Below are positions 12,866-64,000 of a stretch of DNA of 64,000 nt, piece by piece; the stretch's first letter is position 1, and every line of letters starts with the position of its first letter. The stretch is taken from the NCBI RefSeq assembly GCF_023055435.1, contig NW_025963890.1, positions 59,210,001-59,274,000 on the forward strand, written 5' to 3'. The notes under the pieces are model-generated. The model was not told where the DNA came from. It saw nothing but the letters and a program-made list of their open reading frames with translations, and did not search any database. The DNA is from Haliotis rufescens. Lineage: Eukaryota. Made by a program: the position numbers and the translations under genes.

Positions 12866-15251
12866 AGCTATCACTATATTTCATCAACAACCAGACCTGT
12901 TGGTCACGGGTGGAACGAGCATTCATTGTAACAGCCATCTGCATAATGCTTCCCCTGCGTCACAGGGCCATATGACACAGATGAATCAACTCAACTCGAA
13001 AGGTTGCATTGGAATCACGCACGCACGAATACGGTGTTAGCATTAGATTTCATGTCTCAGCGCAAACATCTTTCTGCTGATGCGAAAGGTTTCGTTGTTA
13101 AAATATTTGAATACTTTAGGTTGAAAGTGAAAGACGTTCGCCCTTCTTTGACATTTCAAAGTACAGGAAAAGAACAATTCATGCGTTACAGCTTTCCAAA
13201 CAAACCGTAGTTAAGATTTTGAACTCTCATAAAAACACATGCTTCCCTGCACATCCCTTAAGTGGCATATCAAAACAGGATAGGAAATTAAAGTTAGATT
13301 CCTTTGATAAGAAAGTTGTCAGGGACGTGATCGGCGGTTAACACGAGAAAATGAATTTATTTCATCACGAAAACTAAAACAAATTCTCCTTACAGAGCAT
13401 GGCTTAGATAGCTCAAAATGGACCATTTGTAAACTCCTTTCCAAATTTGGATATCAGTACAAAAAGACGAAAGGGTCGAAACTAGCAATGTGTGAACGAC
13501 CAGATATCATTCGTTTGCGTATCAATTATTTGCGCACTATTAAAAAGAAACGAGAAGAAGGCTATGAGCCTGTCTATTTGGACGAATCCTGGGTTAACGC
13601 CTGTCACACAGCGGCTTACCAATGGTCTCACCCAGATACCAGAGAGCCACAGCGCAAGATCCCCCCTGGTAAAGGGGAGCGCCTGATTGTCCTCCATGCA
13701 GGCTCCCACAGAGGTTTCTTCCCTAGGTGTGATCTAGTGTTCAGATCCAGATCTACAGATGGCAGAGACTACCATACCGAGATGAATAGTCAGGTTTTCA
13801 CTGCGTATGTTGAGGAGCAGCTCCTCTTAGCACTGCCTGATAAATCCTTGGTGGTTATGGTCAATGCTCCCTATTACAGTTGTCGAGATCCCATTAACAG
13901 TTGTCCAACCTCAAATTCCACCAAAGGTGAGATATGTCGGTGGTTGGACAACAACCGCATTGCTCGGCCCACAAAAGCAAAACAAACTGACTACTACCAA
14001 CCGGTTCTTCAGAACAAACCCCCGCCCTCTTATTTGATAGGACAACATGTTGAGAGAACACGGTCACGAAGTGCTTAGACTTCCTCCTTACCTTTGTGAC
14101 TTGAATCCAATCGAACTAATCTGGGGTGATTTGAAAAAATATTGTCGCACGGCAAAATAAGACCTTCAAGCTTGCCGACGTCAAGCAGATTGTCTTGAAA
14201 GGGATGGGAAAAATTCAGATGTACATGGGGCAAACTGTGTCCAACATGTTATCAAAGTTGAGGAAGAGTATTGGAAACAAGACTGTATCCGACCACATAC
14301 TGTCCAGCCTGTTGTTGTTTATTTAGGTGACAGCAAAGACTCCGAATCTGATGACGAGGGCATTTCGTGGGACCAAGAATAATGCAATACATATACCCCT
14401 GTTTCACTGCGAGATGCAATAGCCCGAATTACCAAGGATATGAATTCTTACAGATTCGTACATATTCTTAATTACTTCTTAAGAATCTTAAATATATCTT
14501 ATTTGAATCGATAACATTCTTGTAATACGTGGGATTCGTGAAAAAAATTGTTTATCAAAGAATTCCTAGGAATCGTCTACGAATTTCAGGTTCGTGCTTT
14601 GTAGTACATGTCGTTATCGGATCTTGTCCACTTTGTGCAATTCATGGCTCTGAATTTGATTCTCTTTCACCCGAAACAGCCCCGAAAGTCTCGAATCATC
14701 TACGAAAATATTAAAATATTTTCTTCGAAACCATAAAGCAATGATTTGACTAAATGAATAATTACGTATGATATGTTACACCTAATAACATGATGCATGA
14801 AATATAATAATGTGGCAAGGAGTGATACATTCAAGTCAATAACACTGACCTGAAAAAGAATGCAAAAATATTTGGATAAATATTATTAAATAACTGCTTG
14901 AGACGCCCAACGCTAACACCGTATTCGTGCGTGCGTGATTCCAATGCAACCTTTTGAGTTGAGTTGATTGGTTCAACTGTGTCATATGGCCCTGTGACGC
15001 AGGGGAAGCATAATGCAGATGGCTGTTACAATGAATGCTCGTTCCACCCGTGACGAACAGGTCTGGTTGATGAAATATAGTGATAGCTAAATAGTCTGGT
15101 TTATTATTCATGCACCGATTGTCATTAAATGAAATATCCAGTTATGTATGACTGTTTAATAATCTCATACCAACTTTGACTGGAGTAGGTCCAATAGTTT
15201 TTCAGATATTGTAGTAAACGTCGGTACCTTAAATTAACTTCCAGACTTATA
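12866..15251 (+). mobile_element. Decayed IS630-Tc1-mariner DNA transposon, Sailor-like (~DD83E), with ~175-bp inverted repeats
   Basis: Inverted repeats 12866-13041 and 14912-15088; possible right terminus ...TTAACTTCCAGACT followed by TATA at 15248-15251; internal transposase remnant. Confidence 0.8.
13052..14382 (+). pseudogene. DDE transposase pseudogene (Sailor-like)
   Basis: Motifs VYLDESWVN, GKGERLIVLHAG, DYHTEMN, VVM[V]NAPYYS (second catalytic D replaced by V), GHEVLRLPPYLCDLNPIELIW; 253 nt from the D2 position to E (about 83-aa spacer with one frameshift); several stops and frameshifts. Confidence 0.88.
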
Positions 15252-18400: not shown

Positions 18401-20292
18401 CTATACTTTGTCTGATGAAATTGTGCTGCCTTGTTTGAACACATGTCGAGCAGTAGATCGTGATCTCCTCAGACGTCTCCATGCGTAGTCATAGGACTTT
18501 ATCATGGAGGCTGTTTTGACGTGGTATGATGCTCTTCTGTACACCACCCTCCGCATATAGACACTGCAGTCCTGAGACACAACATTGTTCACCTGAGCTC
18601 TGACAAGTTTGTTTCCAAGAAGCCGTGTTTCCCAATTAACATTTTCGGGAATATAGTGGCAGAACTTGCTGAAAACCACACACCTTCGTCCGTACCGGAT
18701 GGACTGAACACCGATCTCATAGAGAGCTGGCTTATTGTTCTCAGACTTGAAGACTGTCTTCTTTCTGAATCCAGGGTTGGTACCCCGTCTTTTCTCCCAT
18801 TGTGCATCCTGTTTGAGTGGGACGTCAGGGGAGATAACTTTGACCCACGGTGACCAGTCCATGTTTCTCAAGCTGAAGTTGTTCTCAAAGACTTCCTCTC
18901 TTCTCAGAAGAGGTGTCACAAACTTTGTTGATTTCTGGAATAATATAGTGTATTATGAGACTCCTTGACATGATCATAGCTTAACACAATGAAAACAAGA
19001 ATTAAACAGTGTCATCGCGCATTTAAAAACAATTGAGAGAATATTTTACCTTGAACGATTTCTTTCTTGGCTTTCTGATGGATTTAGGTTTGGGCTTTCT
19101 GACTCTTTGAATGGATGTTATTTTCTTTAAGGTGGGAACCTTCACATCTTTCTTAGCGGCACTGATTGTAATCGTTGTCTTTGGTGGAGAAGGGGAGACA
19201 ATTCCATCACGTAGGGATGTAAACATTCCTTCCATGTCTTTGCTGAGGGCACCATCAGCGCAACGGGCTCGAACCTCTTTCTCGTACACCTGATGAGGGC
19301 AAATAATCATTGATGAAAGGAGTTTTATAACAACGAATATCACACGATTAAAATGACAGGCTCTCTACGGATTTTAAAGTGGTGCAGTGATTTCAACTTA
19401 CATGAAGAATCTCTGCCCCCTGTTCCCTGTAGCAGATGGCCATAAGGAAGTCAAAGATGTTTGTAAAGTTTTCCAATTTAAGATGCCGACCTCCTGTCTT
19501 GTTGGAAATGGTTTCGTAGAACGTCGTATTGTCCGTGTCGCACTGAACTCCATAGATTTTCACTCCCTGAAATTAATATTAATATATAGAATAAGTGAAT
19601 AAACATCGTTGTGTCGAATTTACGATTGTTGTCGTGAAGTAAAAGCAAGGTCCCTGCACCTTTCTTATTTATTCATCATTTTCGGTTATGTCGAAGCCCA
19701 GATAACTTTACTCGGATAAATTTACGTAAGCCCCTTAAACGTCGACACAAAGGTGTTTGACCGTGGTGAGTGTTGTATTCTTATCATTTGATATATGTAT
19801 GAAAATGACCACAACCTGGAAATTAATAGAAATTCAACATACCATTTCATCCAGAGTTTGTGTCTCCTTTCTCCAGTCTATTTTTAGTTTATTGGCTTTG
19901 AAATCTGGTTCGTGGGGCTTGTCGTCCCCGACGACGACGAGAACACGGTTAGATCCTGGTGTCCATGACAACTCCTCCCTAACTTGTCGGAGAACAAGCT
20001 CGTAACACTCGCCGTGGTCGTATGTGCCTCCTGTATCTTTAACGTTCATGACGAAGTCGCAGAGTTCTTTGACGTCAGTGGAGAAGTCGATCCACTTTGT
20101 GACATATGTGGATTTGGTACAGTAGTCACCGTGTGCGAAGACGGCGATTCTGACGGCGGGGATGTCAGCCTGGAGCCGCTGTATCATGTCCTGGAGTCGT
20201 CCTCTGACTTCAGCCAGACACTTGCTCATGGAGCCGGTTGTGTCAAAGGAGAAGACAATCTCCGGAAGTCCACCAGGAGGAAGCAAAGCCAT
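18401..20292 (-). CDS. vWA(MIDAS) + basic linker + ET/HRT-type GIY-YIG-like protein, copy 1 (462 aa); CDS exons 20292-19843, 19566-19402, 19289-19050, 18934-18401
   Basis: Four coding exons (450, 165, 240, 534 nt) joined by GT-AG phase-0 introns give one open frame. N-term IVFSFDTTGSM...AHGDY...TGG...ECYE...VVGDDKPH; C-term WSPW...PALYEIGV...SVYMRR...YDYAW. Candidate AATAAA at 17995-18000. Confidence 0.92.
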
Positions 20293-20726
20293 ATTGAATC
20301 TGTTGAAATATTCAAAACAACTGAAGTACATGTATACAAGAAGTTTCACTCTAAAAATTGATAGAAATTTAGAACAATTAACTCTAGCAGTGTAAATAAT
20401 TAAAAAATGTTTTGAAAATCCGATTTTTTTCCTTTTTAATCTTAATTTTTATATTCTCAAAATTTCATAAAAGAATAGATTAACTTTTTAACAAGTCCAT
20501 TAAGAAACAAGAATGTTTCTTAAAAATATTTGCACTGGTAATTTCCGTTATTATGCTATGATCATTTTTTATAGATATAAAAGAATGTGTTTCCATTATT
20601 AGTAAATATTTTTTCTTATCAAATAGATATAAATAGATAAGTTATTTGGCGACGATTTCCTCGATGTTATCAGAGGCGGTACTATATGTATATACACCAT
20701 CACTGTTAACATGTTCCTCTAGTTAC

Positions 20727-24332: not shown

Positions 24333-26222
24333 CTATACTTTGTCTGATGAAATTGTGCTGCCTTGTTTGAACACATGTCGAGCAGTAGATCGTGATCTCC
24401 TCAAACGCCTCCAAGCGTAGTCATAGGACTTTATCATGGAGGCTGTTTTGACGTGGTTTGATGCTCTTCTGTACACCACCCTCCGCACATAGACACTGCA
24501 GTCCTGAGACACAACGTTGTTCACCTGAGCTCTGACAAGTTTGTTTCCAAGAAGCCGTGTTTCCCAATTAACATTATCAGGAATATGGTGGCAGAACTTG
24601 CTGAATACCACACACCTTCGTCCGTACCGGATGGACTGAACACCGATCTCATAGAGAGCTGGCTTATTGTTCTCAGACTTGAAGATTGTCTTCTTTCTGA
24701 ATCCAGGGTTGGCACCCCGTCTTTTCTCCCATTGTGCATCCTGTTTGAGTGGAACGTCAGGGGAGACAACTTTGACCCACGGTGACCAGTCCATGTTTCT
24801 CAAGCTGAAGTTGTTCTCAAAGACTTCCTCTCTTCTCAGAAGTGGTGTCACAAACTTTGTTGATTTCTGGAATAATATAATGTATTATGAGACTCCTTGA
24901 CATGATCATAGCCTAACACAATGAAATCAAGAATTAAACACTGTGATCGCGCATTTAAAAACAATTGAGAGAATATTTTACCTTGAACGATTTCTTTCTT
25001 GGCTTTCTGATGGTTTTAGGTTTGGCCTTTCTGACTCTTTGGATGGATGTTATTTTCGTCAAGGTGGGAACCTTCACATCTTTCTTAGCGGCACTGATTG
25101 TAATCGCTGTCTTCGGTTGAGAAGGGGAGACAATTCCATCACGTAGGGATGTAAACATTCCTTCCATGTCTTTGCTGAGGGCACCATCAGCGCAACGGGC
25201 TCGAACCTCTTTCTCGTACACCTGATGAGGGCAAATAATCATTGATGAAAGGAGTTTTATTATGACGAATATCATAGAATTAAAATGACAGCCGCTCTAC
25301 GGATTTTAAAGTGGTGCAGTTATTTCAACTTACATGAAGAATCTCTGCCCCCTGTTCCCTGTAGCAGATGGCCATAAGGAAGTCAAAGATGTTTGTAAAG
25401 TTTTCCAATTTAAGATGCCGACCTCCTGTCTTGTTGGAAATGGTTTCGTAGAACGTCGCATTGCCCAGGCCGCACTGAACTCCATAGATTTTCACTCCCT
25501 GAAATTAAAATTAATAAATAGAATAAGTGAACGAACATCGTTGTGTGGAATTTACGGTTGTTGTGGCGAAGCAAAAGCAAGGTCCCTGCGCATTCCTTCT
25601 TTATTCATCATTTTCGGTTGTGTCGAACCTCGGATAACGTTACTCGGATACATTTACGTGAGTCCCTTCAACGTCGACTCAAAGGTGGTTGACTGGTGAG
25701 TGTTGTATTCTTATCATTTGATTAATGTAGGAAAATGACCACAACCTGGAAATTAATAGGAATTCAACATACCATTTCATTCAGAGTTTGTGTCTCCTTT
25801 CTCCAGTCTATTTTTAGTTTATTGGCTTTGAAGTCTGGTTCGTGGGGCTTGTCGTCCCCGGCGACGACGAGAACACGGTTAGATCCTGGTGTCCATGACA
25901 ACTCCTCCCCAACTTGTCGGAGAACAAGCTCGTAACACTCGCCGTTGTCGCCACAGCCTCCTGTATCTTCAACGTTCATGACGAAGTCGCAGAGTTCTTT
26001 GACGTCAGTGGAAAAGTCGATCCATTTTGTGACATATGTGGATTTAGTGCAGTAGTCACCGTGTGCGAAGACGGCGATTCTGACGGCGGGGATGTCAGCC
26101 TGGAGCCGCTGTATCATGTCCTGGAGTCGTCCTCTGACTTCAGCAAGACAGCTGCTCATGGAGCCGGTTGTGTCAAAGGAGAAGACAATCTCCGGAAGTC
26201 CACCAGGAGGAAGCAAAGCCAT
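24333..26222 (-). CDS. vWA + GIY-YIG-like protein, copy 2 (462 aa); CDS exons 26222-25773, 25498-25334, 25221-24982, 24866-24333
   Basis: Same exon lengths, phases and splice sites as copy 1; intact frame. Confidence 0.92.
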
Positions 26223-31152: not shown

Positions 31153-33612
31153 CTATACTTTGTCTGATGAAATTGTAGTGCCTTGTTTGACTACATGTCT
31201 AGCAGTAGAACGTGATCTCCTCAGACGCCTCCAAGCGTAGTCATAGGACTTTATCATGGAAGCTGTTTTGACGTGGTATGATGCTCTTCTGTACACCACC
31301 CTCCGCACATAGACACTGCAGTCCTGAGACACAACGTTGTTCACCTGAGCTCTGACAAGTTTGTTTCCAAGAAGCCGTGTTTCCCAATTAACATTATTGG
31401 GAATATAGTGGGAGAACTTGCTGAATACCACACACCTTCGTCCGTACCGGATGGTCTGAACTCCGATCTCATAGAGAGCTGGCTTATTGTTCTGAGACTT
31501 GAAGATTGTCTTCTTTCTGAATCCAGGGTTGGTACCCCGTCTTTTCTCCCATTGTGCATCCTGTTTGAGTGGGACGTCAGGGGAGATAACTTTGACCCAC
31601 GGTGACCAGTCCATGTTTCTCAAGCTGAAGTTGTTCTCAAAGACTTCCTCTCTTCTCAGAAGTGGTGTCACAAACTTTGTTGGTTTCTGGAATAATTAAA
31701 GTGTATTATGAGACTCCTTGTACTGGTCATAGACTAACACAATGTAAACAAGAATTAAACAGTGTCATCGCGCATTTAAAAACAATTGAGAGAATATTTT
31801 ACCTTGAACGATTTCTTTCTTGGATTTCTGATGGATTTAGGTTTGGGCTTTCTGACTCTTTGGATGGATGTTATTTTCTTTAAGGTGGGAACCTTCACAT
31901 CTTTCTTAGCGGCACTGATTGTAATCGTTGTCTTTGGTGGAGAAGGGGAGACAATTCCATCACGTAGGGATGTAAACATTCCTTCCATGTCTTTGCTGAG
32001 GGCACCATCAGCGCAACGGGCTCGAACCTCTTTCTCGTATACCTGATGAGGGCAAATAATCATTGATGAAAGGAATCTTATAACAACGAATATCACAGAA
32101 TCAAAATGACAGCCGCTCTACGGATTTTAAAGTGGTGCAGTTATTTCAACTTACATGAAGAATCTCTGCCCCCTGTTCCCTGTAGCAGATGGCCATAAGG
32201 AAGTCAAAGATGTTTGTAAAGTTTTCCAATTTAAGATGCCGACCTCCTGTCTTGTAGGAAATGGTTTCGTAGAACGTCGTATTTTCCGTGTCGCACTGAA
32301 CTCCGTAGATTTTTACTCCCTGAAATTAATATTAACATTTATCATTTAACTTAAGCATTTATCCATGACATAAGCTTATGACATAAAAACATGTATGACA
32401 TACCCCATTGACATAAGTATGCAAATTAGATATGCAAATTAGATAACCGGAAGAGTGAGCGGTTTGATTTGAAACTATATATTATAAGTGAAGTTACACC
32501 AGAGATATAATCAGATTACACAGAATCGTTGTTGTTACCGTTATTAAAGTTTCAATTATTCTGCAAAAGTCTGTTCAATTATTTTGTTTAAAATAATCCG
32601 AGGAACTTTTTTTCTCAGGGAATTGTTTATTTTGGTTTACATGGCTATGGAAAACATGTATCACTACGCACGATCTATACGTAAGATTTCGACAAGTTGC
32701 TGATGTTAATGTTTAATGCAATTATTCCTTAATTTGGAAGCAAAAATGATAAATAGAATTCATCACTCGTGTTTTTTAATATGGGAAATATCAACCTCGT
32801 CCCGTTAATCGGTATTTGCCTCGCCAAAGGCTCGGCAAATACCGATTAACTAAGACTCGGTGTGATATTTCCCATATTAAAAAACACTCGTGATGAATGC
32901 TCTATATAGAATAAGTGAATAAACATCATTGTGTCGAAGTTACGGTTGTTGTCGCGAAGTAAAAGCAAAGTCCCTGCACATTTCTTCTTTTTTCATTATT
33001 TTCGGTTGTGTCGAACCCCGGATAACTTTACTCGGATAAATTAACGTAAGCCCCTTCAACGTCGACACAAAGGTGTTTGACCGTGGTGAGTGTTGTGTTC
33101 TTATTATTTGATTTATGTCTGAAAATGACCACAACCTGGAAATTAATAGAAATCGAACAAACCATTTCATTCAGAGTTTGTGTCTCCGTTTTCCAGTCTA
33201 TTTTTAGTTTATTGGCTTTGAAGTATGGTTCGTGGGGCTTGTCGTCTCCGACGACGACGAGAACACGGTTAGATCCTGGGGTCCATGACAACTCTTCCCT
33301 AACTTGTCGGAGAACAAGCTCGTAACACTCGCCGTGGTCGTATGTGCCTCCTGTATCTTCAACGTTCATGACGAAGTCGCAGAGCCCTTTGACGTCAGTG
33401 GAGAAGTCGATCCATTTTGTGACATATGTGGATTTAGTGCAGTAGTCACCGTGTGCGAAGACGGCGATTCTGACGGCAGGGATGTCAGCCTGGAGCCGCT
33501 GTATCATGTCCTGGAGTCGACCTCTGACTTCGGCGAGACAGTCGCACATGGAGGCAGTAGTGTCAAAGGAGAAGACAATCTCCGGAAGTCCACCAGGAGG
33601 AAGCAAAGCCAT
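31153..33612 (-). CDS. vWA + GIY-YIG-like protein, copy 3 (462 aa); CDS exons 33612-33163, 32319-32155, 32042-31803, 31686-31153
   Basis: Intact frame with the same structure; MIDAS DTTASM; first coding-exon donor is GTTTGT; ~570-bp insertion in the following intron. Confidence 0.88.
32336..32903. mobile_element. Intronic non-autonomous element with ~150-bp terminal hairpin
   Basis: Absent from the same intron of copies 1, 2 and 4; inverted repeat CATCACTCGTGTTTTTTAATATGGGAAATATC...GATATTTCCCATATTAAAAAACACTCGTGATG; related hairpin at ~61177-61296. Confidence 0.8.
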
Positions 33613-38348: not shown

Positions 38349-40189
38349 TTACATCTTGTCAGATGAAATCGTGCAAGTTTGTTTGTTAACATGTCGAGCA
38401 CCTGAGCGTGATCTCAGACGCATCCAAGCGAAGTCATAGGACTTTATTAAAGCGGCTGTTTTAACGTGACTTGAGGCTCTTCTGTACACCACCCTCCGCA
38501 CATGGACACTGCAGTCCTGCGACACAACATTGTTCACCTGAGCTCTGACAATTTTGTTTCCGAGAAGCCGCGTTTCCCAGTTGACATTATGAGGAATATG
38601 GCGACAGAACTTGCTGAATACTACAAACTTTCGTCCGTATCGGGTGGTCTGAACACCGATCTCATAGAGAGCTGGCTTATTGTTCTCAGACTTGAAGATT
38701 GTCTTCTTTCTGAATCCAGGGTTGGCACTCCGTCGCTTCTCCCATTGTGCATCATGTTTGAGTGGAACGTCAGAGGAGATAACCTTGACCCACGGTGACC
38801 AGTCCATGTTTCGTAAGCTGAAGTTGTTCTCAAAGACTTCCTCTCTTCTCAGAAGTGGTGTCACAAACTTTGTTGGTTTCTGGAATAATGTAAGTGTATT
38901 ATGAGACTCCTTGTACTTGTCATATCCTAACACAATGTAAACAAGAACTAAACAGTGTCATCGCGATTTAAAAATATATAAGAGAATATTTTACCTTCAC
39001 TGATTTCTTTCTTGGCTTCCTGGTCGATTTAGGTTTGGCCTTTCTGACTCTTTGGGTGGATGCAGGAGGTTTCTTTAACTTTGGACCCTTCACATCTTTT
39101 TTGGCGGCACCGATTGTAATTGTCGTCGTTGGTGGAGAAGGGGAGACAATTCCATCACGTAGGGATGTAAACATTCCTTCCATGTCTTTACTGATGGCAC
39201 CATTACTGCAACGGGCTCGAACCTCTTTCTCGTACACCTGATAAGGGCAAAATTCATTGATGAAACGAATCTTATAACAACGAAATTCACACAACTAAAA
39301 TGACAGCCGCTCTACAGAAGTTATAATGAGGTTAATTTATTTCAACCTACATGAAGGATATCTTCTCCATGTTCCCTGTAGCAGATGGCCATGAGGAAGT
39401 CAAAGATGTTTGTAAAGTTGTCCAATTTAAGATGCCGACCTCCTGTCTCGTTGGAAATGGTTTCGTAGAACGTCGTATTGTCCGTACCGCACTGAACTCC
39501 GTAGATTTTTATTCCCTGAAATTAACGTTAATAAATAGAAAAAGTGAATAAACACCGTTGTGTCGAATTTACAGCTGTTGTCTCGAAGTAAAATTCTCGG
39601 TCCCTGTACACTCCTTCTCGGGTGTGTCGAACCTCGGATAACTCGAAGCAATTATGTTGGTCTCCTCAACTTCGACACAACAGAGTTGGACTGTAATGGG
39701 AAAGGACACAACACAGAAATTAATAGGAATTCAACATACCATTTTATTCAGAGTTTGCGTCTCCATTCTCCAGTCTATTTTTAGTTTATTGGCTTTGAAG
39801 TTTGGTTCGTGGGGCTTGTCGTCCCCGACGACGACGAGAACACGGTTAGATCCTGGTGTCCATGACAATTCCTCCCCAACTTGTCGGAGAACAAGCTCGT
39901 AACACTCGCCGCTGTCGTAATCACCTCCTGTATCTTCAACGTTCATGACGAAGTCGCAGAGCTCTTTGACGTCAGTGGAAAAGTCGATCCACTTTGTGAC
40001 ATATGTGGATTTGGTACAGTAGTCACCGTGTGCGAAGACGGCGATTCTGATGGCGGGGATGTCAGCCTGCAGCCGCTGTATCATGTCCTGGAGCCGTCCT
40101 CTGACTTCGGCGAGACAGTCGCTCATGGAGCCGGTTGTGTCAAAGGAGAAGACAATCTCCGGAAGTCCACCAGGGGGAAGTAAAGCCAT
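38349..40189 (-). CDS. vWA + GIY-YIG-like protein, copy 4 (462 aa, most divergent intact copy); CDS exons 40189-39740, 39515-39351, 39237-38995, 38879-38349
   Basis: Exons of 450, 165, 243 and 531 nt, phase 0, GT-AG; intact frame; C-terminal YDFAW. Confidence 0.92.
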
Positions 40190-42687: not shown

Positions 42688-43102
42688 CTGGACATTAGTA
42701 GGCGTAATATGCTTGATGAACGTGTTAATTTTATTATGCGTGTTCATTTTCACAAATACACATGGATAATATTGCCAACGTGGATGTGAATATTGTGGAA
42801 AGGCTGATAATAAGAAAGCTTCCTCGATATCATTTATTCAGTATGTTTGTTCATTTTCAAGTAGTAAATGTACTGTGATATAGCAGTTTGACACTTGCGC
42901 CCGTGCAACAAGCGGGGCTGCTTTTACATGAAGATGCCATCTCCGTGTGGAAATACACGATCGCTAAGAGGGTTTATTGTTTACAAGTTCTCCGGTCTAT
43001 ATACAAGAATTGTTATACATGCATATCTACAACTGTATGCACACATGTGTCAATTCGGGGTCAATTTTTCTCTCTCAATGTAATTAATCACACACAAAGT
43101 AT

Positions 43103-43876
43103 ATACGTAAATGTATGTGACAATGAAGAAATAGATGTGTGGACACACACAGCAAATATCACAAACGTGAAGATAGATGACAATGAAGATTTAGGTGTCT
43201 GGACACACACAGCAAATACCACACACGTGAAGATAGATGACAATGAAGATTTAGGTGTCTGGACACACACAGCAAATATCATACACGTGAAGATAGATGA
43301 CAATGAAGATTTAGATGTGTGGACACACACAGCAAATATCACAAACGTGAAGATAGATGACAATGAAGAAATAAATGTGTGGACACACACAGCAAATATC
43401 ACAAACGTGAAGATAGATGACAATGAAGATTTAGATGTCTGGACACACACAGCAAATATCACAAACGTGAAGATAGATGACAATGAAGATTTAGGTGTCT
43501 GGACACACACAGCAAATATCATACACGTGAAGATAGATGACAATGAAGAAATAGATGTGTGGACACACACAGCAAATATCACAAACGTGAAGATAGATGA
43601 CAATGAAGATTTAGATGTCTGGACACACACAGCAAATATCACAAACGTGAAGATAGATGACAATGAAGATTTAGGTGTCTGGACACACACAGCAAATATC
43701 ATACACGTGAAGATAGATGACAATGAAGAAATAGATGTGTGGACACACACAGCAAATATCACAAACGTGAAGATAGATGACAATGAAGATTTAGATGTCT
43801 GGACACACACAGCAAATAGCATACACGTGAAGATAGGTGACAATGAAGATTTAGATGTCTGGACACACACAGCAAA
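43103..43876. repeat. 60-bp minisatellite, about 13 copies, no indels
   Basis: GGACACACACAGCAAATATCACAAACGTGAAGATAGATGACAATGAAGATTTAGATGTCT in perfect register. Confidence 0.97.
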
Positions 43877-44569
43877 GTTTTTGAAGAAGATTTACTGTTT
43901 ATATCAAAAAGGGCTTTTACGATTCATTTCTATATTCTGTAAAGAGAATCTTTTTGTGGCATTGGGGGCCCAGTCGTCTAAGACGCCACGATTCGCTGTG
44001 CAGAGTTCCGTCCCAGGGCACACCAGACACCTATGATTACTGGTTCGAATCCCGGTTCGCCCCTGTTATGTTTCTAGGTATGTATCTTAAATTAGCGATA
44101 TTATAGCCAAAAAATGAACGGTTAAAGCGCTTAGTCAGCGCTCAATGAATACTTCTACATGGTTTAAAGCTTTAAAAGATTACTTTTTTTGCGCCTAATA
44201 CACAACTGGTGATAGGTTTCTTGGACATTTATTTACAATATTTCACTTGACCCAAGTTTGATTCAAGTCATCACCGGTTTGTTAGTCTGCTAACTTAACT
44301 TTAATGATATATGTATTCATGACATTAGTTTTATTTAAGCTATATCCGTATGCGTTTATCAATATAGTACCAACGGAGTTGTGATGGATCTGTGTGTATG
44401 CGGGAGTGTGTGAGTAATTGGTCAGTATATTTGTATCAATTTTGTTTAGGCATATGGTAGGGTGTTTCAGCGTCGTGTTGTTTTTATATCTATATCAGGC
44501 CTGCCTATGAAAAAAAGTCGAATTAGGGATTCCGACTAAATTATGAGCATGTATTTATTAATCATGTTC

Positions 44570-45834: not shown

Positions 45835-48197
45835 TTATATTTCCTCTGACGACATTATGCTGCCTTGTCTGTACACATATCGGGCGCGAGGGCGTGATCT
45901 CAGACGCTCCCAAGCATAGTCAAAGGACTTCATCATAGAAAGAGACTTATTGTGACTTGAAGCTCTTCTGTACACCACCCTCCACACAAAGACACTTTCC
46001 CAAGTAACATTCCCGGGGATATGGTGTCAAACGTGTTGAATACTACGACCCTTCGTCTGTATCGTTTGGCTTGAACAGCTATTTCATAGAGAGCTAGTTT
46101 ATTGTTCTCAGAAATGAACATCCGTGTTTCTTTAGCAAAAGATGTTCTCAAAGACTTGCTGGAGTATCATGCAGGAAGACGAGGCACCATAGGTCTCCAT
46201 GATCCCCAGCAGGCTTGAACAGGTTTTTCATAGAGAGCTAGTTTATTGTTCTCAGAAATGACATCCGTGTTTCTTTAGCAAAAGATGTTCTGAAAGACTT
46301 GCTGGGGTATCATGCAGGAAGACGAGGTACCATAGGTTTCTATGATCCCCAGCAGGCTTGAACAGCTATTTCATAGAGAGCTGTTTTATTGTTCTCAGAA
46401 ATGAACATCCGTGTTTCTTTAGCAAAAGATGTTCTGAAAGACTTGCTGGGGTATCATGCAGGAAGACGAGGTACCATAGGTTTCTATGATCCCCAGCAGG
46501 CTTGAACAGCTATTTCATAGAGAGCTGTTTTATTGTTCTCAGAAATGAACATCCGTGTTTCTTTAGCAAAAGATGTTCTGAAAGACTTGCTGGAGTATCA
46601 TGCAGGAAGACGAAGTACTGTAGGTCCCCATGATCCCCAGCAGGTGGCCTAGCTTTGGTTACTTGTGGCCTACAACCCGTGTTTTAAACTGTATTAATGT
46701 TATTGTTATGTTAGTTTGATCAAATGTGTTTTAAAACAAAATATACATTTGCATTCATAACTCAATTGTGAATACGTATATTAACTTGGTCTCGTCGCTA
46801 TATGGCTGAAATAATGCCGATGCGACGAAAATTTAAACTCACTCACTCAAAGACTTCCGCTCTTCTCAGAAGAGGTGCCACAAACCTTTCTGGTTTCAGG
46901 AATTACAAACATATAACGAGAGTACAGATCTCCCAATGAACACCACACGTGACATTGCGAAAAGATAGCTATTTAATTTATGATTTATGAAACTTCCCTT
47001 CAATGATTTGGTTCTGGGCATCCTGTTTGATCTACGTTTAGACTTTTGGACTCCTCGGTTGGATGCTGTCTTCTTTAAGGTGGGAACCTTCACCCTCATC
47101 TTGGCAGGCTTAGCAACAGCAACATTCTTCCCATCCTTCCCGACTCCAGGAATGGATGTCGTCTTCTTAAAGATAGGTGGCTTATCACCTTTCTCAGCCG
47201 CACTTGCTGGCGTCTTCTTCTTTGGCGAGGAAGGGGAGGCTACTCCATCCAGTAGAGACGTAAACATGACTCGAACCGCTTTTTCGTAATCCTGATAAAT
47301 AAAACAAATCTTACAGACAAGATAAACAAAATATTATTTTTGAAATCAAACATTGGAAATGACAATCCATGGATCAATTAACCCTGGACACATGTATTGA
47401 GATAACAATATAGTGGGTAATCGATAACTCAAATACGACAGGGGAGGCCAGATATGTCAAATTACACGAAGGGTATCTGCCCCGTGTTCCCTGTAGCAGA
47501 TGGCCATGATGAAGTCAAAGATATTTGTATAGTTGTCCAATTTAAGATGTCGTCCTCCTGTCTCGATGCAAATTGTCTGGTAGAACGTCGTAGCCCAGTC
47601 GTCACACTCAACTCCATAAATTGTTATTCCCTGGATATAAAATCAGTGAATATCATGAGTACCTATATCTCTTCATATGATTTATGAAGAGGATTATAAA
47701 ATGTTGCAGCCTTCTAAGTTGATCGAAATTACAGGGTAAAATTCAACTAACCATTTTATGGAGAGTTTTTGTCTCCTCTCCAGTCTATATTTCGTTTATT
47801 GGCTCTGAAGTTTCGTTCGTGGGGGTAGTCGTCTTCGACGACGACAAGACCTCGGTTGGATCTCTGTGTCAAAGACAACTCCTAACAAACCTTGTCTGAA
47901 AACAAGCTCGTAACATTCGGCCCCGTCATCAGTGCCCCCCTGTACCTTTCACGTTCATGACGAAGTCCCAGAGCTTTTTGACGTCAGTGGAGAAGTCGAT
48001 TTTGTGACATATGTGGATTTGGTACAGTATTCACCGTGTGCGAAGACGGCGATTCTGATGGCGGGGATGTCAGCCTGGAGCCGCTGTATCATGTCCTGGA
48101 GCCGACCTCTGACTTCGGTCAGACAGTCGTTCATTGTCCCGGCTGTGTCAAAGGAAAACACAATCTCCATAAGTCCACTAGGAGGGACTAAGGCCAT
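45835..48197 (-). pseudogene. vWA + GIY-YIG-like gene, copy 5 (pseudogene)
   Basis: ATG at 48197; MIDAS degraded to DTAGTM; 4-nt deletion near 48000 causing a frameshift and stop at 47955; deletions in later exons; last exon split by an insertion (~46158-46845); TATA decayed to TATGAACG (~48470). Confidence 0.9.
46069..46643. repeat. ~144-bp tandem repeat x4 spanning an exon/insertion junction of the pseudogene
   Basis: GCTTGAACAGCTATTTCATAGAGAGCT...CATGATCCCCAGCAG repeated four times. Confidence 0.92.
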
Positions 48198-54184: not shown

Positions 54185-57100
54185 TCATATGCAGTGTAAC
54201 GCCATGGACGACCCGGTCACCCCTCGTTCATCTCCCACCCAGAACAGCTCTTCGGGGTCTCCACTGACATTGACTGGAACTGGCTTCAGTCGGCCATTTG
54301 GGTTGCAACGTGTGCAGTCCTTGAACCACCATCCAGAGCCGTGAATTTGAGGACAGCTACCTGTTGGATTATCATCATTGTCTCTGTCATAAGTGCTGAA
54401 TTTAGCCCCCTTCAGTTCTGTCATTGTGTCATTCAGCTTGTTTTTTGGGGATGTCGTGCTTGCATTATACTCGCTAAATGTCATTCTATAGCCATCAGTT
54501 TCATCAGTTAGTTTGAAGTTTTTAAAGTTGATTTGTCTCCATTTCGGACAGCATGGATAGGTGAGATGAACTATCAACTGACATATTACCCTGTCACTGA
54601 TTGCTTTTATTTTTTCAAGGCCAAGCCAGTGGTCACGTGTGACCTCCCCAAAGCCTTCTCGATAGTCCCGCCATTTCCTGTTGAAGTTGATACCATAGTG
54701 CTGCTTCTGAAAGTAGGTTCTTCCTCCAAAAGTCATGTGGCAGAAGACTTCGAATGGTGGGGAAGAGGTATTAGGTTCGATGGTAAAGACACCCGTGCCT
54801 GTTGCTCCATTCCTGAACCCCTCGCTACAATCTGATAATGAAATAGTATTAGTAACACAATGACCATGTAGTTTAAGCATACAGTGAAACACCCTGACGA
54901 ATTCTAGAGAAACGACTAACTGGTCATGTCACTTAATCTCAATTAATCATCATTTTAAAAATATAATGTTGAGCTTTACAAAGATTCAAAGAGAGTTGAC
55001 AAACTGTAAGAATATTACAAATACAATAACTGCATATGTGTTTGCTTGCCATACTTTACTGCTCCGACGGTCAAATATCAGATAAGTGCATCCACAGTGT
55101 ACAATGATTAATAGAGTGTCGGGTTGTGATTTCACATATGGAAGGACCGTTCAGTGTTTGTCTTTCCTTTATTTTCGTCGTAAAATTAACTTATTGAACC
55201 ATACCATTAAACTTATACATACAGACGTTCACACATTGACATATATTCTCAAAACAAAGTAGGGGATCATGAAATATAATTGTTTTAATCGGTCGTCAGA
55301 AGAATATAAGTTTTGAAAAAAAGACGGCCCGAGATCGTTTTCGGAACCACAATCTAACGGCCCAACACACAAGAAATATTGCACGTGGACAGTACATTGG
55401 TAGTGGAGCTTTATTGATTTTGACACTTCAGTATCGCAATGAACCATTTGTATTGTAGATCTTTCAGATACCAAGAAATCGAACCCAAATAGCCAATCAA
55501 ATCGCAGTTCACTTGCGCCAGGCCACCGGAGTGCAAGTTAATGACCAGACGATAAGAAATCGTGTTGTTCTACGTAAACAAATCGACACATTCAAGCTAG
55601 ACACCGATAGGTACGGTGGGAATCGCCGATGGCCTGGTGTAATGTTTTCAGATGAGTTCAAATTTCCTCTGGACTTTCTAGATAGGTATTGACGTGTCTG
55701 GAGGCGCCCTAACGAACGTCATGAGAACGGCAACGTAAGTCAACATGACAGGTTTGGGGCTGGGGCTGTAATGATATGGGCCGGGATCTCCCTGGCTGCC
55801 AGAACGCCACTACATATTGTCCATGCAAGGGTCACTGGACAATACTACCGAAGCAGCATACTGACGCCAATAACCACCTTATCTGTTTTCGTATTAAATC
55901 TGTCCAAGATTGTCAGAAAATGTCCATAGTAGATTGAATGACAAGGGGGATGACTTCAACTTTCAATACACATACAGTCGGAATCGTACAATGGAGCAGA
56001 TAGCTCCTGGTTATCGAAAGAGTTTGGTCGCTTTTATTTGCGATACATCTAACGCCTTATGTAAAGGGCTATGATGAAGGCAGGAGATATCCAATGTACA
56101 AATATAGTTCATGTTGATACAAAAAATATGTTATACAATTGCTGAAGGGGGATGACTTCAACTTTCAATACACATACAGTCGGAATCGTACAATGGAGCA
56201 GATAGCTCCTGGTTATCGAAAGAGTTTGGTCGCTTTTATTTGCGATACATCTAACGCCTTATGTAAAGGGCTATGATGAAGGCAGGAGATATCCAATGTA
56301 CAAATATAGTTCATGTTGATACAAAAAATATGTTATACAATTGCTGAACATGATATTTTCAAGATATTTCACTTGGCATCACTTGTGACACAACAGCTTC
56401 AAATGTGAAGATATGGTTATGCCAGGATTGAACAAAACATTTATCCATTTTTGCATGTTTTATACTTAACATTGTTCATTCAATGATCCCTACCACTCTC
56501 TTTCTTGATAAAATAAGCAAACTTATCAGTTTGCAATCAAGTGTAATAAAAACGTCCACTTAATTCTGTGAACCCATTTCTGTCCAAAAACTATCCATAC
56601 TGTGGCAGGTCTTGGTCAAAGGTATTTACCAAGTTCCACATGCTTTGTACGTAAGTATATACTAAGGAATGAAAAATGAAAACAATCCTTCACAAAACTC
56701 AGCTTTAAGTCACATGGACTATAGTCAAGCAAACTTTCGGTTTGCTCAAAACTTTTTTCTGTATATTGCAAAAGCACAAAGATGTAACTACAAGTATCAA
56801 GGCACATAATGCAAATTATTTTTAACAATTCAATCAAGTTTACCGTTATAAGGCCAGTAAAGTTTCCTTTGCTCAAAACCCATTTTTGTGTTTTGAAATC
56901 ACAAACGTGGAGCATAAAAGTATCATGACATACAATTTAACTACTTGTAAAAATACATTTTACTGTCAATAAAACAGCAAAGTCTGCCATGTTAAAAAAA
57001 ACAGAAATTGATGCTGTCTATGGGTGTGGCTTGATGGTACCTTGGTAATTAGTTATTATTGGTCTTTGAACTGACTGACTGACTGACTGTCTGATAATCC

Positions 57101-59456
57101 CCCTTTGCAACTATATATAAAATAATATCCTTTATTCTGAAACTCAAAACAAGTTAGTGCATCGTTGTTTAACACAAGTAACGTCCAAAGGGGTGGTAAA
57201 CCTAACTCAATCCCCCCTATTAGTTTTGCATTTCTTTTCTCGATCCCTTGGGGGTATATATCTTGTCTTTGGAAAGCAAACATCAAGCGCTTATCTGCCT
57301 TTACATGAATACTTACCATACCAATACCGTTGGCAGTATCTTCCAGCAAAGCTGTAGGGACAAATACAAGAAACCTTTCTTGAATCGGACCAGTAGCCGC
57401 CGTTTTCACATGGTGGAGGTGGGTATGTCTGAAATATTGGAACTTGTCTCAGAACTACATTGGAGTCAAATGCAATCATGTTGGATAAGGAAGCGCTCAT
57501 TTGGTAAATCAAACCATAGGTGCTATGGCAAGATATTTTCCCTTTAAACGTTTTTATTCTGAATATATGCGCCGAAAAACGCAATGCCTTCTTTGATAAA
57601 CATCTAAGATACCACCGAGATGCCATACCTTCTCTGATAAATGCAAACAAAGTTACCAACGCTGAACGTCCGTTTCACATGCCTGGGGAGGGAATGTCAG
57701 ACACAAGAGGAGTGTAGAATCTACTACACAGGTGAGCGTTATATGTTGTTATTGATGAAAAGTGTTACCAACGATAAACGGCCGTTTCACATGGTTGGGA
57801 TAGGGGTATGTGTGTGGTGTTAGACACATGATGAATGCTGAGTATACTTCTCCGAAACACATATAATAACAGAGAATCTACTAAACAGGGGTATGTTATA
57901 TGTTGTTATTGATGAAAATGTGCTTTATTCATATTATCATACCTTATTTCGTCCGTCTTACTTTTCATTTTGAAGACGACAACTTCAAAGAAAAATAATT
58001 TTCAGAATTCCAGGCCATTCACCAGGTCCAGCGAATTATCTGTTTTAGTAAAACAGAGTGCCACGTTATTTTGTGCATCTTCTGGACCACATTGACTTAA
58101 AACATAAACAGTCCCTCTCACTGAATTTCAAATGGTCATCTCAGTTTCCAATACCATAAATGTAGTTGACGTAGCTTGCTTTGGGACCGTTTTGGCTTGT
58201 TTGGGCGAGGTCCCGTTTCCTTCGCCACAATGGCCAAGATAGTTGGGGAATTAACTTGATAGAGCTGATTACTATGACCTTCAAGAGAGAGAAGGCTGCT
58301 GAGTCCCTTGGTGTTCTTATTCTAGGCAGAGTAAAGCATCTGCCACTGGACTCAGGCCTTCTGCAGCATGTGTTAGTTACCAAATCTTGAAACTGTAATC
58401 CAAATATGTCAAATGCCTGGTGTATTAATTGCGATTATTACTTAGTTAGGTAGTGCACTGACCACTTAATATTCTATATATTCCTACCTAGATAAAATCT
58501 ACCAATTAGATGTTACAGCCTGGGGGAACTTATTATTGAAATATGGCCACTATAATTATGGATTAGTTGTAGTGATTTTAGAACTAATGACATATTCATT
58601 TAAGAGTCGATACCTTATTTTATAAATGACGAGTCGGAATTGTTTATCGTACAATAAACACTGCACGGAGAATAAACCGTTTTTTTCACTGCAGTGTTTT
58701 ATTGTGCGATAAACCACGAGTCGTTTATTTCTTATGTGAGATGTCAAGACTCTTTATGATGATGAGGAATGTACAAAGTTTAGAAATATTTACCCTATTT
58801 TAATAATGATAACTCCCAACAGAATCCAACCTCGGCAATGTCCATTGTATGCACAGGTTGGTATTTTCCGCATATTTTCACATCAGTCACGTCGATTACC
58901 TGTACCTTTTTTACCAATGACGATTGTCATATCTCTCCCGCTTTTGAATGCGATCGTTCGTCCATCGCGTTTATCTGCACTGCCCCACTACATCTATGGG
59001 GAACAATTTACTAGACACTCCCCCCTCAAAAATAACGTCGTCCAATATATGACTTCATCAAGTTGCGAGCGCATGTTCGAATCTCCAGAAATGTCGCCAT
59101 GATAGAGCAATTTTTTATCGTAAAAAAAACACACTTCGCTTTTGCGATTTCTCGCGTAGCTATCTTATATAATCAAATATAGCGTGACTTACCTTTCTGA
59201 AGGAGACATCTTTGATGACCATGTCCTGTAATCCGGACATCGTTATGAGGCTACAAGTACCGTTCTCCACTGACATGATGGTGGCCGCACAAGTATCAGA
59301 CGAAGCACATTGTTTCAAACAGTCAAGAATAAAATCCCGATCCGCTGGAGATAATTTAACAGAAGGGGTGAACACTTTGGCGGTTGTCCCAGACGAGAGA
59401 TGTGCGTTTAACATTAAGATACCAACAATTAACGTGAACGCAGTAGCGAGAGACAT
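54185..59456 (-). CDS. Secreted PAN/apple-like + EGF + fibrinogen C-terminal (FReD) protein, ~340 aa; exons 59456-59193, 57428-57317, 54831-54185
   Basis: Hydrophobic signal peptide MSLATAFTLIVGILMLNAHLSSG; CLKQC...C...C motif; EGF-like CENGG...CICPYSFAGRYC; FReD motifs VFCHM, FNRKWRDYREGFG, HWLGLEKI, KFSTYDRDND, GWWFKDC..CNPNG; GT-AG introns with consistent phases (0, 1). Confidence 0.9.
55500..55880 (+). mobile_element. Tc1-like transposase remnant in the FReD gene intron
   Basis: QTIRNR...VMFSDEFKF...RVWRRPNER...HDRFGAGAVMIWAGIS, with a stop and a deletion. Confidence 0.8.
55944..56348. repeat. Apparently exact ~202-bp tandem duplication
   Basis: AGGGGGATGACTTCAACTTTCAATACAC...ATACAATTGCTGA occurs twice. 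Confidence 0.95.
58612..59169. mobile_element. Unclassified non-autonomous element with a left terminal hairpin
   Basis: Imperfect palindrome TTTATCGTACAATAAACACTGCA...TGCAGTGTTTTATTGTGCGATAAA, then a body homologous to 9811-10260. Confidence 0.75.
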
Positions 59457-61176
59457 ATTGCTGGCACAGTCACTCCACTCCAGTCTACATCTGATACTCA
59501 TCAATCCCATCAATCCATCAAGACATCACATCATACCAACAGTGCATCGTCGTCCTTTGTCTGGGAATCTGAGAATATCCATCACAACAATTGTCAATTG
59601 TAAAGGGACGTCTTTAATGTTCAAGATGTTCATGAAATTTTAATGGAGAGACTTTATTGGTAACGATTATAATTTTTGATGTACTGATTGGAATGGCATA
59701 GAGAAGAATTCACAGTCAATGTGTAAATCAATTAATAATGTATTTCTAATCAAGGAAAGAAATCCAATTGTAAGACTTAAAGGTTACAAACTCGTATTTC
59801 ATGATCGGTATTGCAAGCACACAAAGCTAGTCACGATAATGTGTAAATAGAAAGAGAATTGGAATTAATATAACTCATTTACTTGAATAAGGACAAATAA
59901 TAGCGTCTATACACCTTTGGTTACGGGTGCTATACAAAACGCCCACGGCATGATGTTAGAGTTAACACACTGCGTCTTTGGAAATAAAAAGTTCTGCAGT
60001 GAACAAGTCCGACAACAAGATGAGGTAGATCTAAACGGTTTAACTTCCTGATGCAATTTTACGGTGACGAAACCTTCAAATGAGGTTATTCCAATGTAGA
60101 AAAAGTCCGTTCATTTGTGAATTAGGTATTGTGTACACCAATTTCCAGTCATCATCATTTGAAGAAGGTAGCTTGACTAGTATCCAGGTAAAGACCTACA
60201 TGCAGTCGAAGCAAATGTTAAAGTGTGGGAATGAAAGTACAACGTATGCTTATTTCTAAGATGCTCAAAAGATCAAATGCGGCGATTGTACTTTACCATT
60301 CGATAAAGCAAACTTTTTGAGTTACGTCATACAAGGCTGACGTCATGCCGCTGTTCCCCGTATCCTTGATGTCATCGTTCTGTCCTTACAGTCAAGCAAG
60401 ATGGCGTATCCACATCACTTACCGGTGATATAGTTTCTTTAACTTGTCGAATATTTGAATAATATTGACCTGAGATGAAATAAGGCAAAGCATATGAAAA
60501 GCCACCTTGTTACAAAAATGAATGACGACAATGCTAAATCACTAGATCAAAACATGCAGACAACTGGTAACAAGAACAACATTTCTGCAAATTAATTACT
60601 GCCACATAAATCCTGACCAGCACAAACAGACATCCAAACTAACATGCGTAATGTTCATGTGGACAGAAGACAGTATCCAACAATATCAATGTCTGCATAT
60701 TTCTGGTGGCTTCAGCACTCTCTTTGCTGCTTATGTAACTGCCTAAAACATAACGATTAATCTTGTTATACCTGCATGGCCAGTTCTAGTGAAAACATCG
60801 GATTTGCATCGAAAGTAACCTTTCCGCCTGTGTGACGTTTCACAAGTGATCGAGTGGCTTGGCTTCATTGAGCAAAGCTGTGACATTACGCCTCAGATAT
60901 TGTCAAATACCAGAGATGAATCATTATTGTTGTTATTAAGATCATACAGTTTCAAATATGCTCAATACATCAATTAATCATTTTGTTAATTGAATGCAAT
61001 GTAGTTGCAGGAATTAATTTCTCGGCGAATGTATTTTCCCAAAAGAAGTTATAGGGTTATTTGGTTTGCTTCACATTGCAAGGACAATATGTATCTCTAC
61101 GCATAATGTACTGTAAGATTTCAACAATGTTGTGTATTTGTTTCTAAATAGGGAATAGTTTAAGGTGAAAATTATA

Positions 61177-63275: not shown

Positions 63276-64000
63276 TTACCGGCTGGCTCTGGTCCTGTCG
63301 TAGGTGTCCTGCGCCCTCATCCTATGTTCCATAGGCGAGAGGTATGGAGAAACAGCCGGCCATGGCAGTACAGCAATGTTATGCTGCCTCAAAATGTCTG
63401 TTGCAACACATGCAACATGTGGACGGGCATTATCCTGCTGCGCCGTGACGTTACGTCCCTGCATTTGCATAGAACATGATCAGGAACGATACCGTCCCGG
63501 TAGCGTACACCATTCAAATTGCCATTAACAAAGATGAGTTGTGTTCTTACATGAGTTGTGATACCACCCCATACCATTACTCTTCCACCCCAAAACTGAC
63601 GACGTTGAGTAACGCAAGCGTTGTTTAATCGTTCTTCTGGACGCCTGTAGTGCCTTGCACGGCCACCAAATGCTCTCTTCACCAAGTTACATGTGTCTGG
63701 CATTGACGTGGAAGGAAATGGCCGACGTCGAGGCCGGATGTTGTGTTCCCTCAACCGGATGTGAACAGTTCTGCTACTAATTTGATTCGACAAATGAATT
63801 GAGAAGTTAATGTGGCAGTTTGGTATCGATTCCGTAGAAGGGAAGTCAAACATGGACGGCTTTCTCGTAACAAATCATGAGTGTTGCACTGCTGAAGATG
63901 ACATATTCAAAGAGATGATATTGTGTTTGGATGAACATTAAGCTGTCTGTCAACTTTGTTTTGCGCCATTCCTGTTTGCAGCATTACCATGTCGCGTAGA
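63276..64000 (-). mobile_element. Decayed Tc1 (DD34E-type) transposase, running off the window end
   Basis: ISSRTVHIRLRE...GGRVMVWGGI...GNLNGVRYRD...QQDNARPH...VLPWPAVSPYLSPMEH with frameshifts. Confidence 0.85.

Follow-up and report, generated by a model that had tools for sequence, protein, structure and literature searches.

The 64,000-nucleotide stretch of Haliotis rufescens DNA analysed here (the window) contains a group of closely related genes with a vWA domain, and it raises the question whether the differences between these copies, clustered around a predicted metal site, were brought about by selection on ligand binding. A first-pass annotation had described the vWA exons as nearly identical but strongly different in two loops and had proposed diversifying ligand specificity. 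The near identity was confirmed, with 93-95% protein identity of genes W2-W4 to W1, and the quoted motifs were all found on the minus strand: GSMSKC and TGGTYDHGE in W1 (ATG at 20292), GSMSSC and TGGCGDNGE in W2 (ATG at 26222), ASMCDC and TGGTYDHGE in W3 (ATG at 33612), GSMSDC and TGGDYDSGE in W4 (ATG at 40189) and TGGTDDGAE in a pseudogene.

The window holds four intact genes and one pseudogene of the family, and all intact ones carry the head type designated T below. Coding exon A of gene W1 (19843-20292, minus strand) covers codons 1-150 and most of the integrin-betaI-like vWA domain, with a Pfam VWA match, and exon B (19402-19566, minus strand) covers codons 151-205 and the remainder of that domain. 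Exon C (19050-19289, minus strand) encodes a helical extension and a Lys/Arg-rich linker of low model confidence, and exon D (18401-18934, minus strand) encodes a GIY-YIG-fold tail that is without the usual catalytic residues and homogenised between head types. The spliced W1 model is the RefSeq protein P0123; RefSeq additionally lists a longer W1 isoform, P0129, with a start 13 codons upstream (20293-20331, minus strand) in an apparent intron end. Genes W2 (24333-26222; P0125), W3 (31153-33612; P0121) and W4 (38349-40189; P0002), all on the minus strand, are likewise intact with T-type heads, W4 being the most divergent T-type copy of the window. Every intact gene of the window has four coding exons, GT-AG phase-0 introns and a product of 462 aa. 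The pseudogene copy (45835-48197, minus strand; ATG at 48197) shows frameshifts and stops, with a 4-nt deletion within its vWA exon and a 144-bp repeat expansion (46068-46644) within its last exon. Two proteins annotated as short and tail-less, H. asinina P0008 and H. rubra P0011, are similar to the pseudogene head (47752-48197; GLMEIV, GTGGTDDG). Gene W3 carries G20A in its MIDAS motif, Ala replacing a near-invariant Gly (33553-33555), and the identical change occurs in H. asinina P0015. The first intron of W3 (32320-33162) has 843 bases, compared with 224-276 in the other T-type copies, which implies an insertion.

Searching the same genome (20 matches) revealed seven further intact copies some 140 kb from the window (G000:C112:59.04-59.09 Mb) and four distant paralogues on other contigs. 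All 11 cluster gene models are RefSeq proteins of Haliotis rufescens labelled 'uncharacterized'. The distant paralogues L029, L031 and L034 (contigs C135 and C390) have a long Ser/Lys-rich N-terminal extension, a shifted vWA intron and the same tail. Among the best 120 matches, relatives were found in molluscs, annelids, a nemertean, a brachiopod and lancelets. None of the public runs listed with family sequence is recorded as RNA or labelled by tissue or treatment. Splicing was followed in four public runs guessed to be RNA, the contigs of which do not tell which copy they represent: introns 1 and 2 were spliced out in contigs of all four runs and intron 3 was spliced at the modelled sites in two of the four. 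Since these contigs join across the modelled introns, members of the abalone vWA family are spliced.

The AlphaFold model of W1 (pLDDT 82.8, pTM 0.58) consists of a vWA domain, a helical extension, a low-confidence linker and a tail of 177 aa. The vWA fold is confident, with pLDDT block means of 80-96 over residues 11-200 and a Pfam VWA match above cut-off, and many vWA structures were matched by the W1 head with Z of 14-19. Among 48,161 PDB chains its best matches were integrin beta I domains (5ffg_B, Z 18.9, rmsd 2.8, 193 aligned), in Foldseek as well, with TFIIH vWA subunits scoring at most 1 Z unit from them; sequence searches of the PDB gave no real relative. Four motif blocks were aligned by eye with an integrin beta of the same genome and agree in spacing: DLSNSMEDD in the integrin against DTTGSMSKC in the head, RLGFGSFVD against RIAVFAHGD, SGNLDAPE against TGGGDSDE (S type) or GGTYDHGE (W1), and WRDVSRRMLLFSTDAGFH against WTPGSNRVLVVVGDDKPH.

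The MIDAS motif D17-T-T19-G-S21 of W1 (20230-20244, minus strand) corresponds to the D-x-S-x-S motif after strand A, with Thr standing for the first Ser, and D17, T19 and S21 are invariant in 100 of 100 aligned relatives. The wider set D17, T19, S21, D56, D92, E95 and D123 is invariant in 22/22 T-type heads, 12/12 S-type heads and 83/83 other relatives. The features of a betaI-like domain are present, namely the Glu in D-x-x-E, a SyMBS-type Asp after strand B and an Asp after strand D. According to excerpts of PMC3792891, E220 of integrin beta3 is a MIDAS ligand in common with the SyMBS, the ion of which is held by D158, N215 and D217. The loop that had been annotated as the Thr loop of the vWA fold is misnamed: the Thr ligand that alpha-I-type domains have before helix 4 is absent, Thr90 occurs in only 5/22 T-type heads, and the loop is instead a D-x-x-E loop with invariant D92 and E95, Glu taking the place of Thr. 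The adjacent residues D123 and D124 (19921-19926, minus strand) agree in spacing with integrin D251/A252; D123 is invariant, and D124 is Asp in 22/22 T-type but Ala in 12/12 S-type heads. This Ala/Asp split parallels integrin beta3 A252/D, where A252D reduces affinity in the portions of PMC3792891 that bear on it.

The likeness to integrin beta I domains thus covers the top structural matches and the motif spacing (DxSxS, Asp after strand B, D-x-x-E, W...D-x-x-x-H), but the abalone head differs in its Thr for the first Ser, in the lack of other integrin modules and in the lack of a full ADMIDAS. The D8-D9 pair of the ADMIDAS is absent, as residue 24 is Asp in 10/22 T-type heads and position 9 is Cys in 22/22. 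By hydropathy of W1 and by Pfam, no signal peptide, hybrid, PSI or EGF module or transmembrane helix was found, and membership of the integrin beta family was rejected; Pfam Integrin_beta matches only 3 of 100 relatives, with a best E of 0.12. W1 itself has no hydrophobic leader or membrane segment (maximum 19-residue hydropathy 0.77), and therefore the cluster proteins are likely intracellular. A secreted, adhesive or shell-matrix role was rejected for want of a hydrophobic leader in W1.

Three kinds of head can be told apart in the cluster by the D-x-x-E loop: the S type with the family-typical GGGDSDE, a single G-type head with GGGGDGGE, and the T type with GG-x-x-D-x-G-E. Of 100 aligned proteins, 19 have the longer loop, and 15 of these belong to the Haliotis cluster. 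A D-G-G-E loop longer by one residue is also seen in the clam proteins P0027, P0040, P0063 and P0067 (two Ruditapes, one Mercenaria), possibly of independent origin. Judged from the sequences, hypervariability is confined to the T-type heads, which have the one-residue insertion.

Within the T type the variation lies mainly in three places. Codons 23-24 of W1 (20221-20226, minus strand) are the equivalent of integrin SDL1. The loop x90-x91-D92-x93-G-E95 (20008-20025, minus strand; codons 90-93 at 20014-20025) is the SDL3 equivalent, one residue above the family norm, with residues 90, 91 and 93 variable around the invariant D92 and E95. A third variable metal-face loop, codons 160-162 (19531-19539, minus strand), lies in the next exon, exon B, and had been overlooked in the first-pass annotation. 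Integrin binding sites are built from SDL1 and SDL3, with the motif DXSXSXXDD, in excerpts of PMC6889490. By spacing, residue 24 falls on position 8 of that motif and residues 90, 91 and 93 on the positions of N215, 216 and A218; R214, N215 and A218 of beta3 touch the ligand in simulations described in part of PMC3792891. The abalone variable sites map accordingly to SDL1 and to contacts of the R214/N215/A218 type in the sections of PMC6889490 and PMC3792891 concerned. They also follow parallel strands in the AlphaFold model, so that the variable sites are predicted to lie in loops around the metal site, as had been proposed; this nearness rests on the AlphaFold topology and the integrin motif mapping.

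When vWA sites were ranked by variability among 22 T-type heads from four species, the top seven (90, 162, 86, 23, 93, 91 and 24) all lay in metal-face loops. These loops, assigned from secondary structure by a structural rule that was drawn after the variation was seen, hold 12 of the 16 sites with at least five residues but only 58 of 190 positions (Fisher p=1.7e-4). The same positions are variable in all four abalone species, and 12 S-type heads from the four species are fixed at 23, 24, 86, 91 and 93. Part of the pattern is more general. Positions 23, 24, 93 and 160-162 are variable across the whole family too, T-type heads are more variable than S-type heads away from the metal face as well, and other sites vary, e.g. 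76, 105, 130, 141 and 142. When only sites tolerant family-wide were compared, the T-type face contrast gave p=0.0014, 0.038 and 0.19 at three thresholds and was weaker among the most tolerant sites (the latter two values). The paralogue differences reported earlier are real, but some are ancestral, as S24 and G91 of W2 are retained ancestral residues. The concentration of change on the metal face is robust.

For codon tests, six T-type DNA copies from one genome were analysed with our own codon-model code. Tolerant codons were defined as positions that accept change family-wide; the 27 on the metal face gave a dN/dS of 1.84 against 0.38 at the 37 elsewhere in the domain (p=1e-5), and 1.38 against 0.34 when multi-hit rates were included (p=2.5e-4). 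The claim of variation concentrated in loops was therefore upheld in substance, with three loops in place of two. For these six copies the comparison of M1a with M2a gave a 2dlnL of 26.7, with sites 90, 93 and 162 indicated (naive posteriors 0.93-1.0), and M8a against M8 gave 26.2; site 24, with a posterior of 0.17-0.45, had no individual support. With double and triple hits allowed, the M1a-M2a statistic was 11.5 (p=0.003), and for exons C and D it was about 0.

These nominal values have to be read against recombination, which is significant among the T-type copies (PHI-like p=0.0006, 44 informative sites); W1 and W3 have the TYDH loop in common although their flanking synonymous sites differ. 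Such observations, together with the copy that is already a pseudogene, fit an alternative in which insertion and duplication freed the T-type face from an ancestral partner and drift with short-tract conversion mimics clustering. It is also favoured by tree-free counts, which were ordinary in 2,295 neutral simulations (7 sites with at least three residues against 7.2 expected, 2 with at least four against 1.2), and by the face-wide dN/dS, which exceeded 1 with p=0.023 without multi-hit rates but, at 1.38, with p=0.28 once they were included. Under a neutral multi-hit eight-segment mosaic null, 53% of the simulations exceeded the nominal threshold, and nominal site-model tests are thus inflated under gene conversion. 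The observed statistic was reached in only 1 of 167 of these simulations, and this null is conservative because its multi-hit rates absorb part of the signal. Relaxed constraint is further at odds with the invariance, in all 22 T-type heads, of the metal ligands between the variable residues, with the variability of the same positions in each of the four species and with purifying selection on the rest of the domain, for which pN/pS was 0.17. Over all 58 top-loop codons pN/pS was 0.68, a value that counts against positive selection. Apart from the site-class result and the invariant ligands interleaved with variable residues, relaxed constraint with conversion accounts for most of what was observed; it is a serious rival, albeit a doubtful one. 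The site-model check envisaged in the first-pass annotation hence gave a local excess and positive site models, offset by conversion, the false-positive rate and the ordinary tree-free counts. The evidence for dN/dS above 1 is moderate, and the binding face of this uncharacterised family has likely been under diversifying selection.

Multi-nucleotide differences alone, on which the original proposal had leaned, are no evidence for selection. Template switching, other multi-nucleotide events or mis-assembled haplotypes could produce clustered differences; multi-nucleotide events are known to cause false inferences, as stated in 10.1101/165969, and multi-hit rates improved our null by 8.6 log units. 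Template switching was rejected as the cause of the clustering, since no perfect inverted repeat of at least 6 bases overlapping codons 88-94 was present in any of the five copies checked. Further changes were read from per-contig letter counts, among the contigs listed, over 121 bases in four runs from two studies: T90K (3 of 4 runs), G88R (2 of 4) and D86E (1 of 4), i.e. at least three changes, all non-synonymous. The codon for Lys90 (AAA) differs from that for Thr90 (ACA) by a single step, and this intermediate allele suggests stepwise change at codon 90. Moreover, the loop variants recur in the proteins of other species and in independent runs, and in introns 1-3 W1 reaches only 79-97% identity with the other five T-type copies, a better fit to paralogues than to alleles. 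An artefactual origin is thereby largely refuted and very improbable.

The two ends of the protein have different histories. Trees were computed for 39 head and 37 tail proteins, excluding isoform duplicates and, for the tail, two short proteins. The heads group by type across four species, and in the tails S and T types are mixed and grouped by species pair. An S-type clade, named from head motifs and tested after the tree was seen, was rejected for the tail (p-AU 2e-5, 28 rows). Synonymous difference between S and T copies amounts to 0.36-0.69 in exons A-C but to 0.03-0.17 in exon D (0.25-0.29 for W4), and identity between W1 and B5 rises to 0.92-1.0 at the exon D boundary. Because of this low exon D difference, the mixing in the tail tree and the switch of identity at the boundary, the last exon is concluded to be homogenised across head types by gene conversion. 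Two old head types share one tail.

The W1 linker contains 19 K/R and 1 D/E in residues 236-292 (57 residues). The tail folds confidently when modelled alone (pLDDT 94), and GIY-YIG proteins take the first five places among its structural matches, with middling Z of 4.1-7.2, led by 2wsh_A (Z 7.2, rmsd 3.2, 112 aligned); Foldseek returned no tail match at E 0.001 or better. PF19239, the profile of the plant EFFECTOR OF TRANSCRIPTION proteins, finds a match at E up to 1 in 41 of 100 relatives (best 5e-6) and lies above cut-off in P0016 and P0017, with no match for the tail of W1 itself. Those factors have zinc repeats and not a vWA domain, and are described in part of PMC6585611 as plant-specific and carrying zinc repeats. 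The YIG glycine, a central Arg and a C-terminal Glu define the GIY-YIG superfamily in excerpts of PMC1564403. Compared with its nucleases (T4 endonuclease II, UvrC), the abalone tail has the fold without the defining catalytic residues: V-F/Y-S-K stands where YIG is expected, and no conserved central Arg or C-terminal Glu was found at the expected helix positions in 100 relatives or in 145 matched domains, these positions having been assigned from motif and secondary structure without superposition. Since none of the three is conserved at its expected place, the tail is probably a nucleic-acid-binding module that does not cut. E358 (143/143 filled rows) and R413 (141/141) never vary, which could reflect a structural role or a catalytic one, the latter as in a rearranged active site. 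A search with a tail profile yielded 211 representatives; vWA is carried by 11 of the 28 longer ones scanned, which showed no other partner domain. The tail is also found near the N-terminus of P0240, P0251 and P0280, which have no vWA domain and continue in low-complexity sequence.

A mechanism in which metal-mediated binding of a partner is tuned by the loops is put somewhat on the probable side of even. By analogy with integrin chemistry, Mg2+ would be bound by D17, T19, S21, E95 and D123, and the partner would complete the metal site with an acidic side chain. D56, D92 and E95 may make up another, SyMBS-like site, and the choice of partner would fall to residues 23/24, 90/91/93 and 160-162. 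T-type loops would have been diversified by selection after the one-residue insertion, with gene conversion shuffling loop tracts and holding the tail uniform. The basic linker and the GIY-YIG-fold tail may bind nucleic acid without cutting and so provide an output common to all copies. The least supported step is the driver, which might be a changing foreign partner inside the cell; a foreign intracellular protein as the partner is a tentative best guess. In the complete scenario, intracellular invertebrate receptors of an undescribed family would catch acidic motifs of invading proteins with the hypervariable loops of a betaI-like head, would bind nucleic acid through a GIY-YIG tail common to all copies, and would owe their diversity in abalone to the loop insertion, to selection and to gene conversion on the scale of exons; this scenario is rather unlikely.

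Selection may also be real and the partners proteins of the animal itself, with individual copies specialised on different ones, or the family may pair with itself, for instance in chromatin or the germline, with no pathogen involved. The basic linker and nucleic-acid-type tail would point to chromatin or RNA, and the S, G and T head types persist across the genus, as stable specialisation would predict. The turnover of T-type loops between close species and individuals would not be needed for a fixed partner, however, and the tail was rejected as a co-evolving ligand for the very reason that it is homogenised; a host partner is considered improbable.

Close relatives of the head were also found outside animals. 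Phage DxxE-type vWA proteins (Pfam VWA or VWA_4; crAss-like and other large phages) show 30-49% identity over the head exon among the 15 listed of 39 phage records. The best of them also has the helical extension of the abalone proteins, but the phage C-terminal domain is different or missing. In two large-phage proteins (L039:1470-2549 and L037:4980-6083) identity to the head exon is 41-49% and the helical extension is followed by an unannotated C-terminal domain. No annotated function was found for these phage relatives, and NCBIfam and PADLOC gave nothing useful. In the Atlas, bacterial and viral clusters were next nearest, at lead-level scores under 0.8.

Both domains are known already, and the evolutionary pattern is of a familiar kind. 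MHC and NLR clusters combine variable binding loops with constant parts homogenised by conversion. The abalone family has tandem birth and death, patchwork alleles and a variable contact face beside a uniform part in common with them, but is not homologous and is likened to them on evolutionary pattern alone. Neither the protein family nor its beta-I-like site appears to have been described. Papers that did come up dealt with other proteins, and no paper was found on the pairing of vWA with a GIY-YIG fold, on the six gene identifiers, on intracellular beta-I-like domains or on abalone vWA expansions in a search outside of which lay subscription papers and supplements, and differential-expression supplements could list the genes. 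Its interest lies in a metal site built as in integrins but carried by an invertebrate protein that is likely intracellular and has close relatives in phages. Conserved and hypervariable head types on the same tail constitute a natural experiment that can show whether integrin-style loops tune binding, and if the partner is foreign, a recognition system would be added to molluscan immunity in farmed and threatened abalone.

The surroundings of the cluster within the window comprise further genes and repeats. An adjoining gene at 54188-59525 (minus strand) has PAN-like, EGF-like (by eye) and fibrinogen C-terminal exons, with Pfam matches to Fibrinogen_C (E 2.5e-40) and, weakly, PAN_3. One Tc1/mariner-like transposase remnant lies at 13311-14075 (plus strand), with weak DDE_3 and HTH matches, and a second, recognised by eye, at 63392-63874 (minus strand). 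Additionally, a satellite of about 47 bp extends over 118-2405, and a 60-bp minisatellite at 42879-44033 forms an open frame of 385 aa made up of 20-aa repeats.
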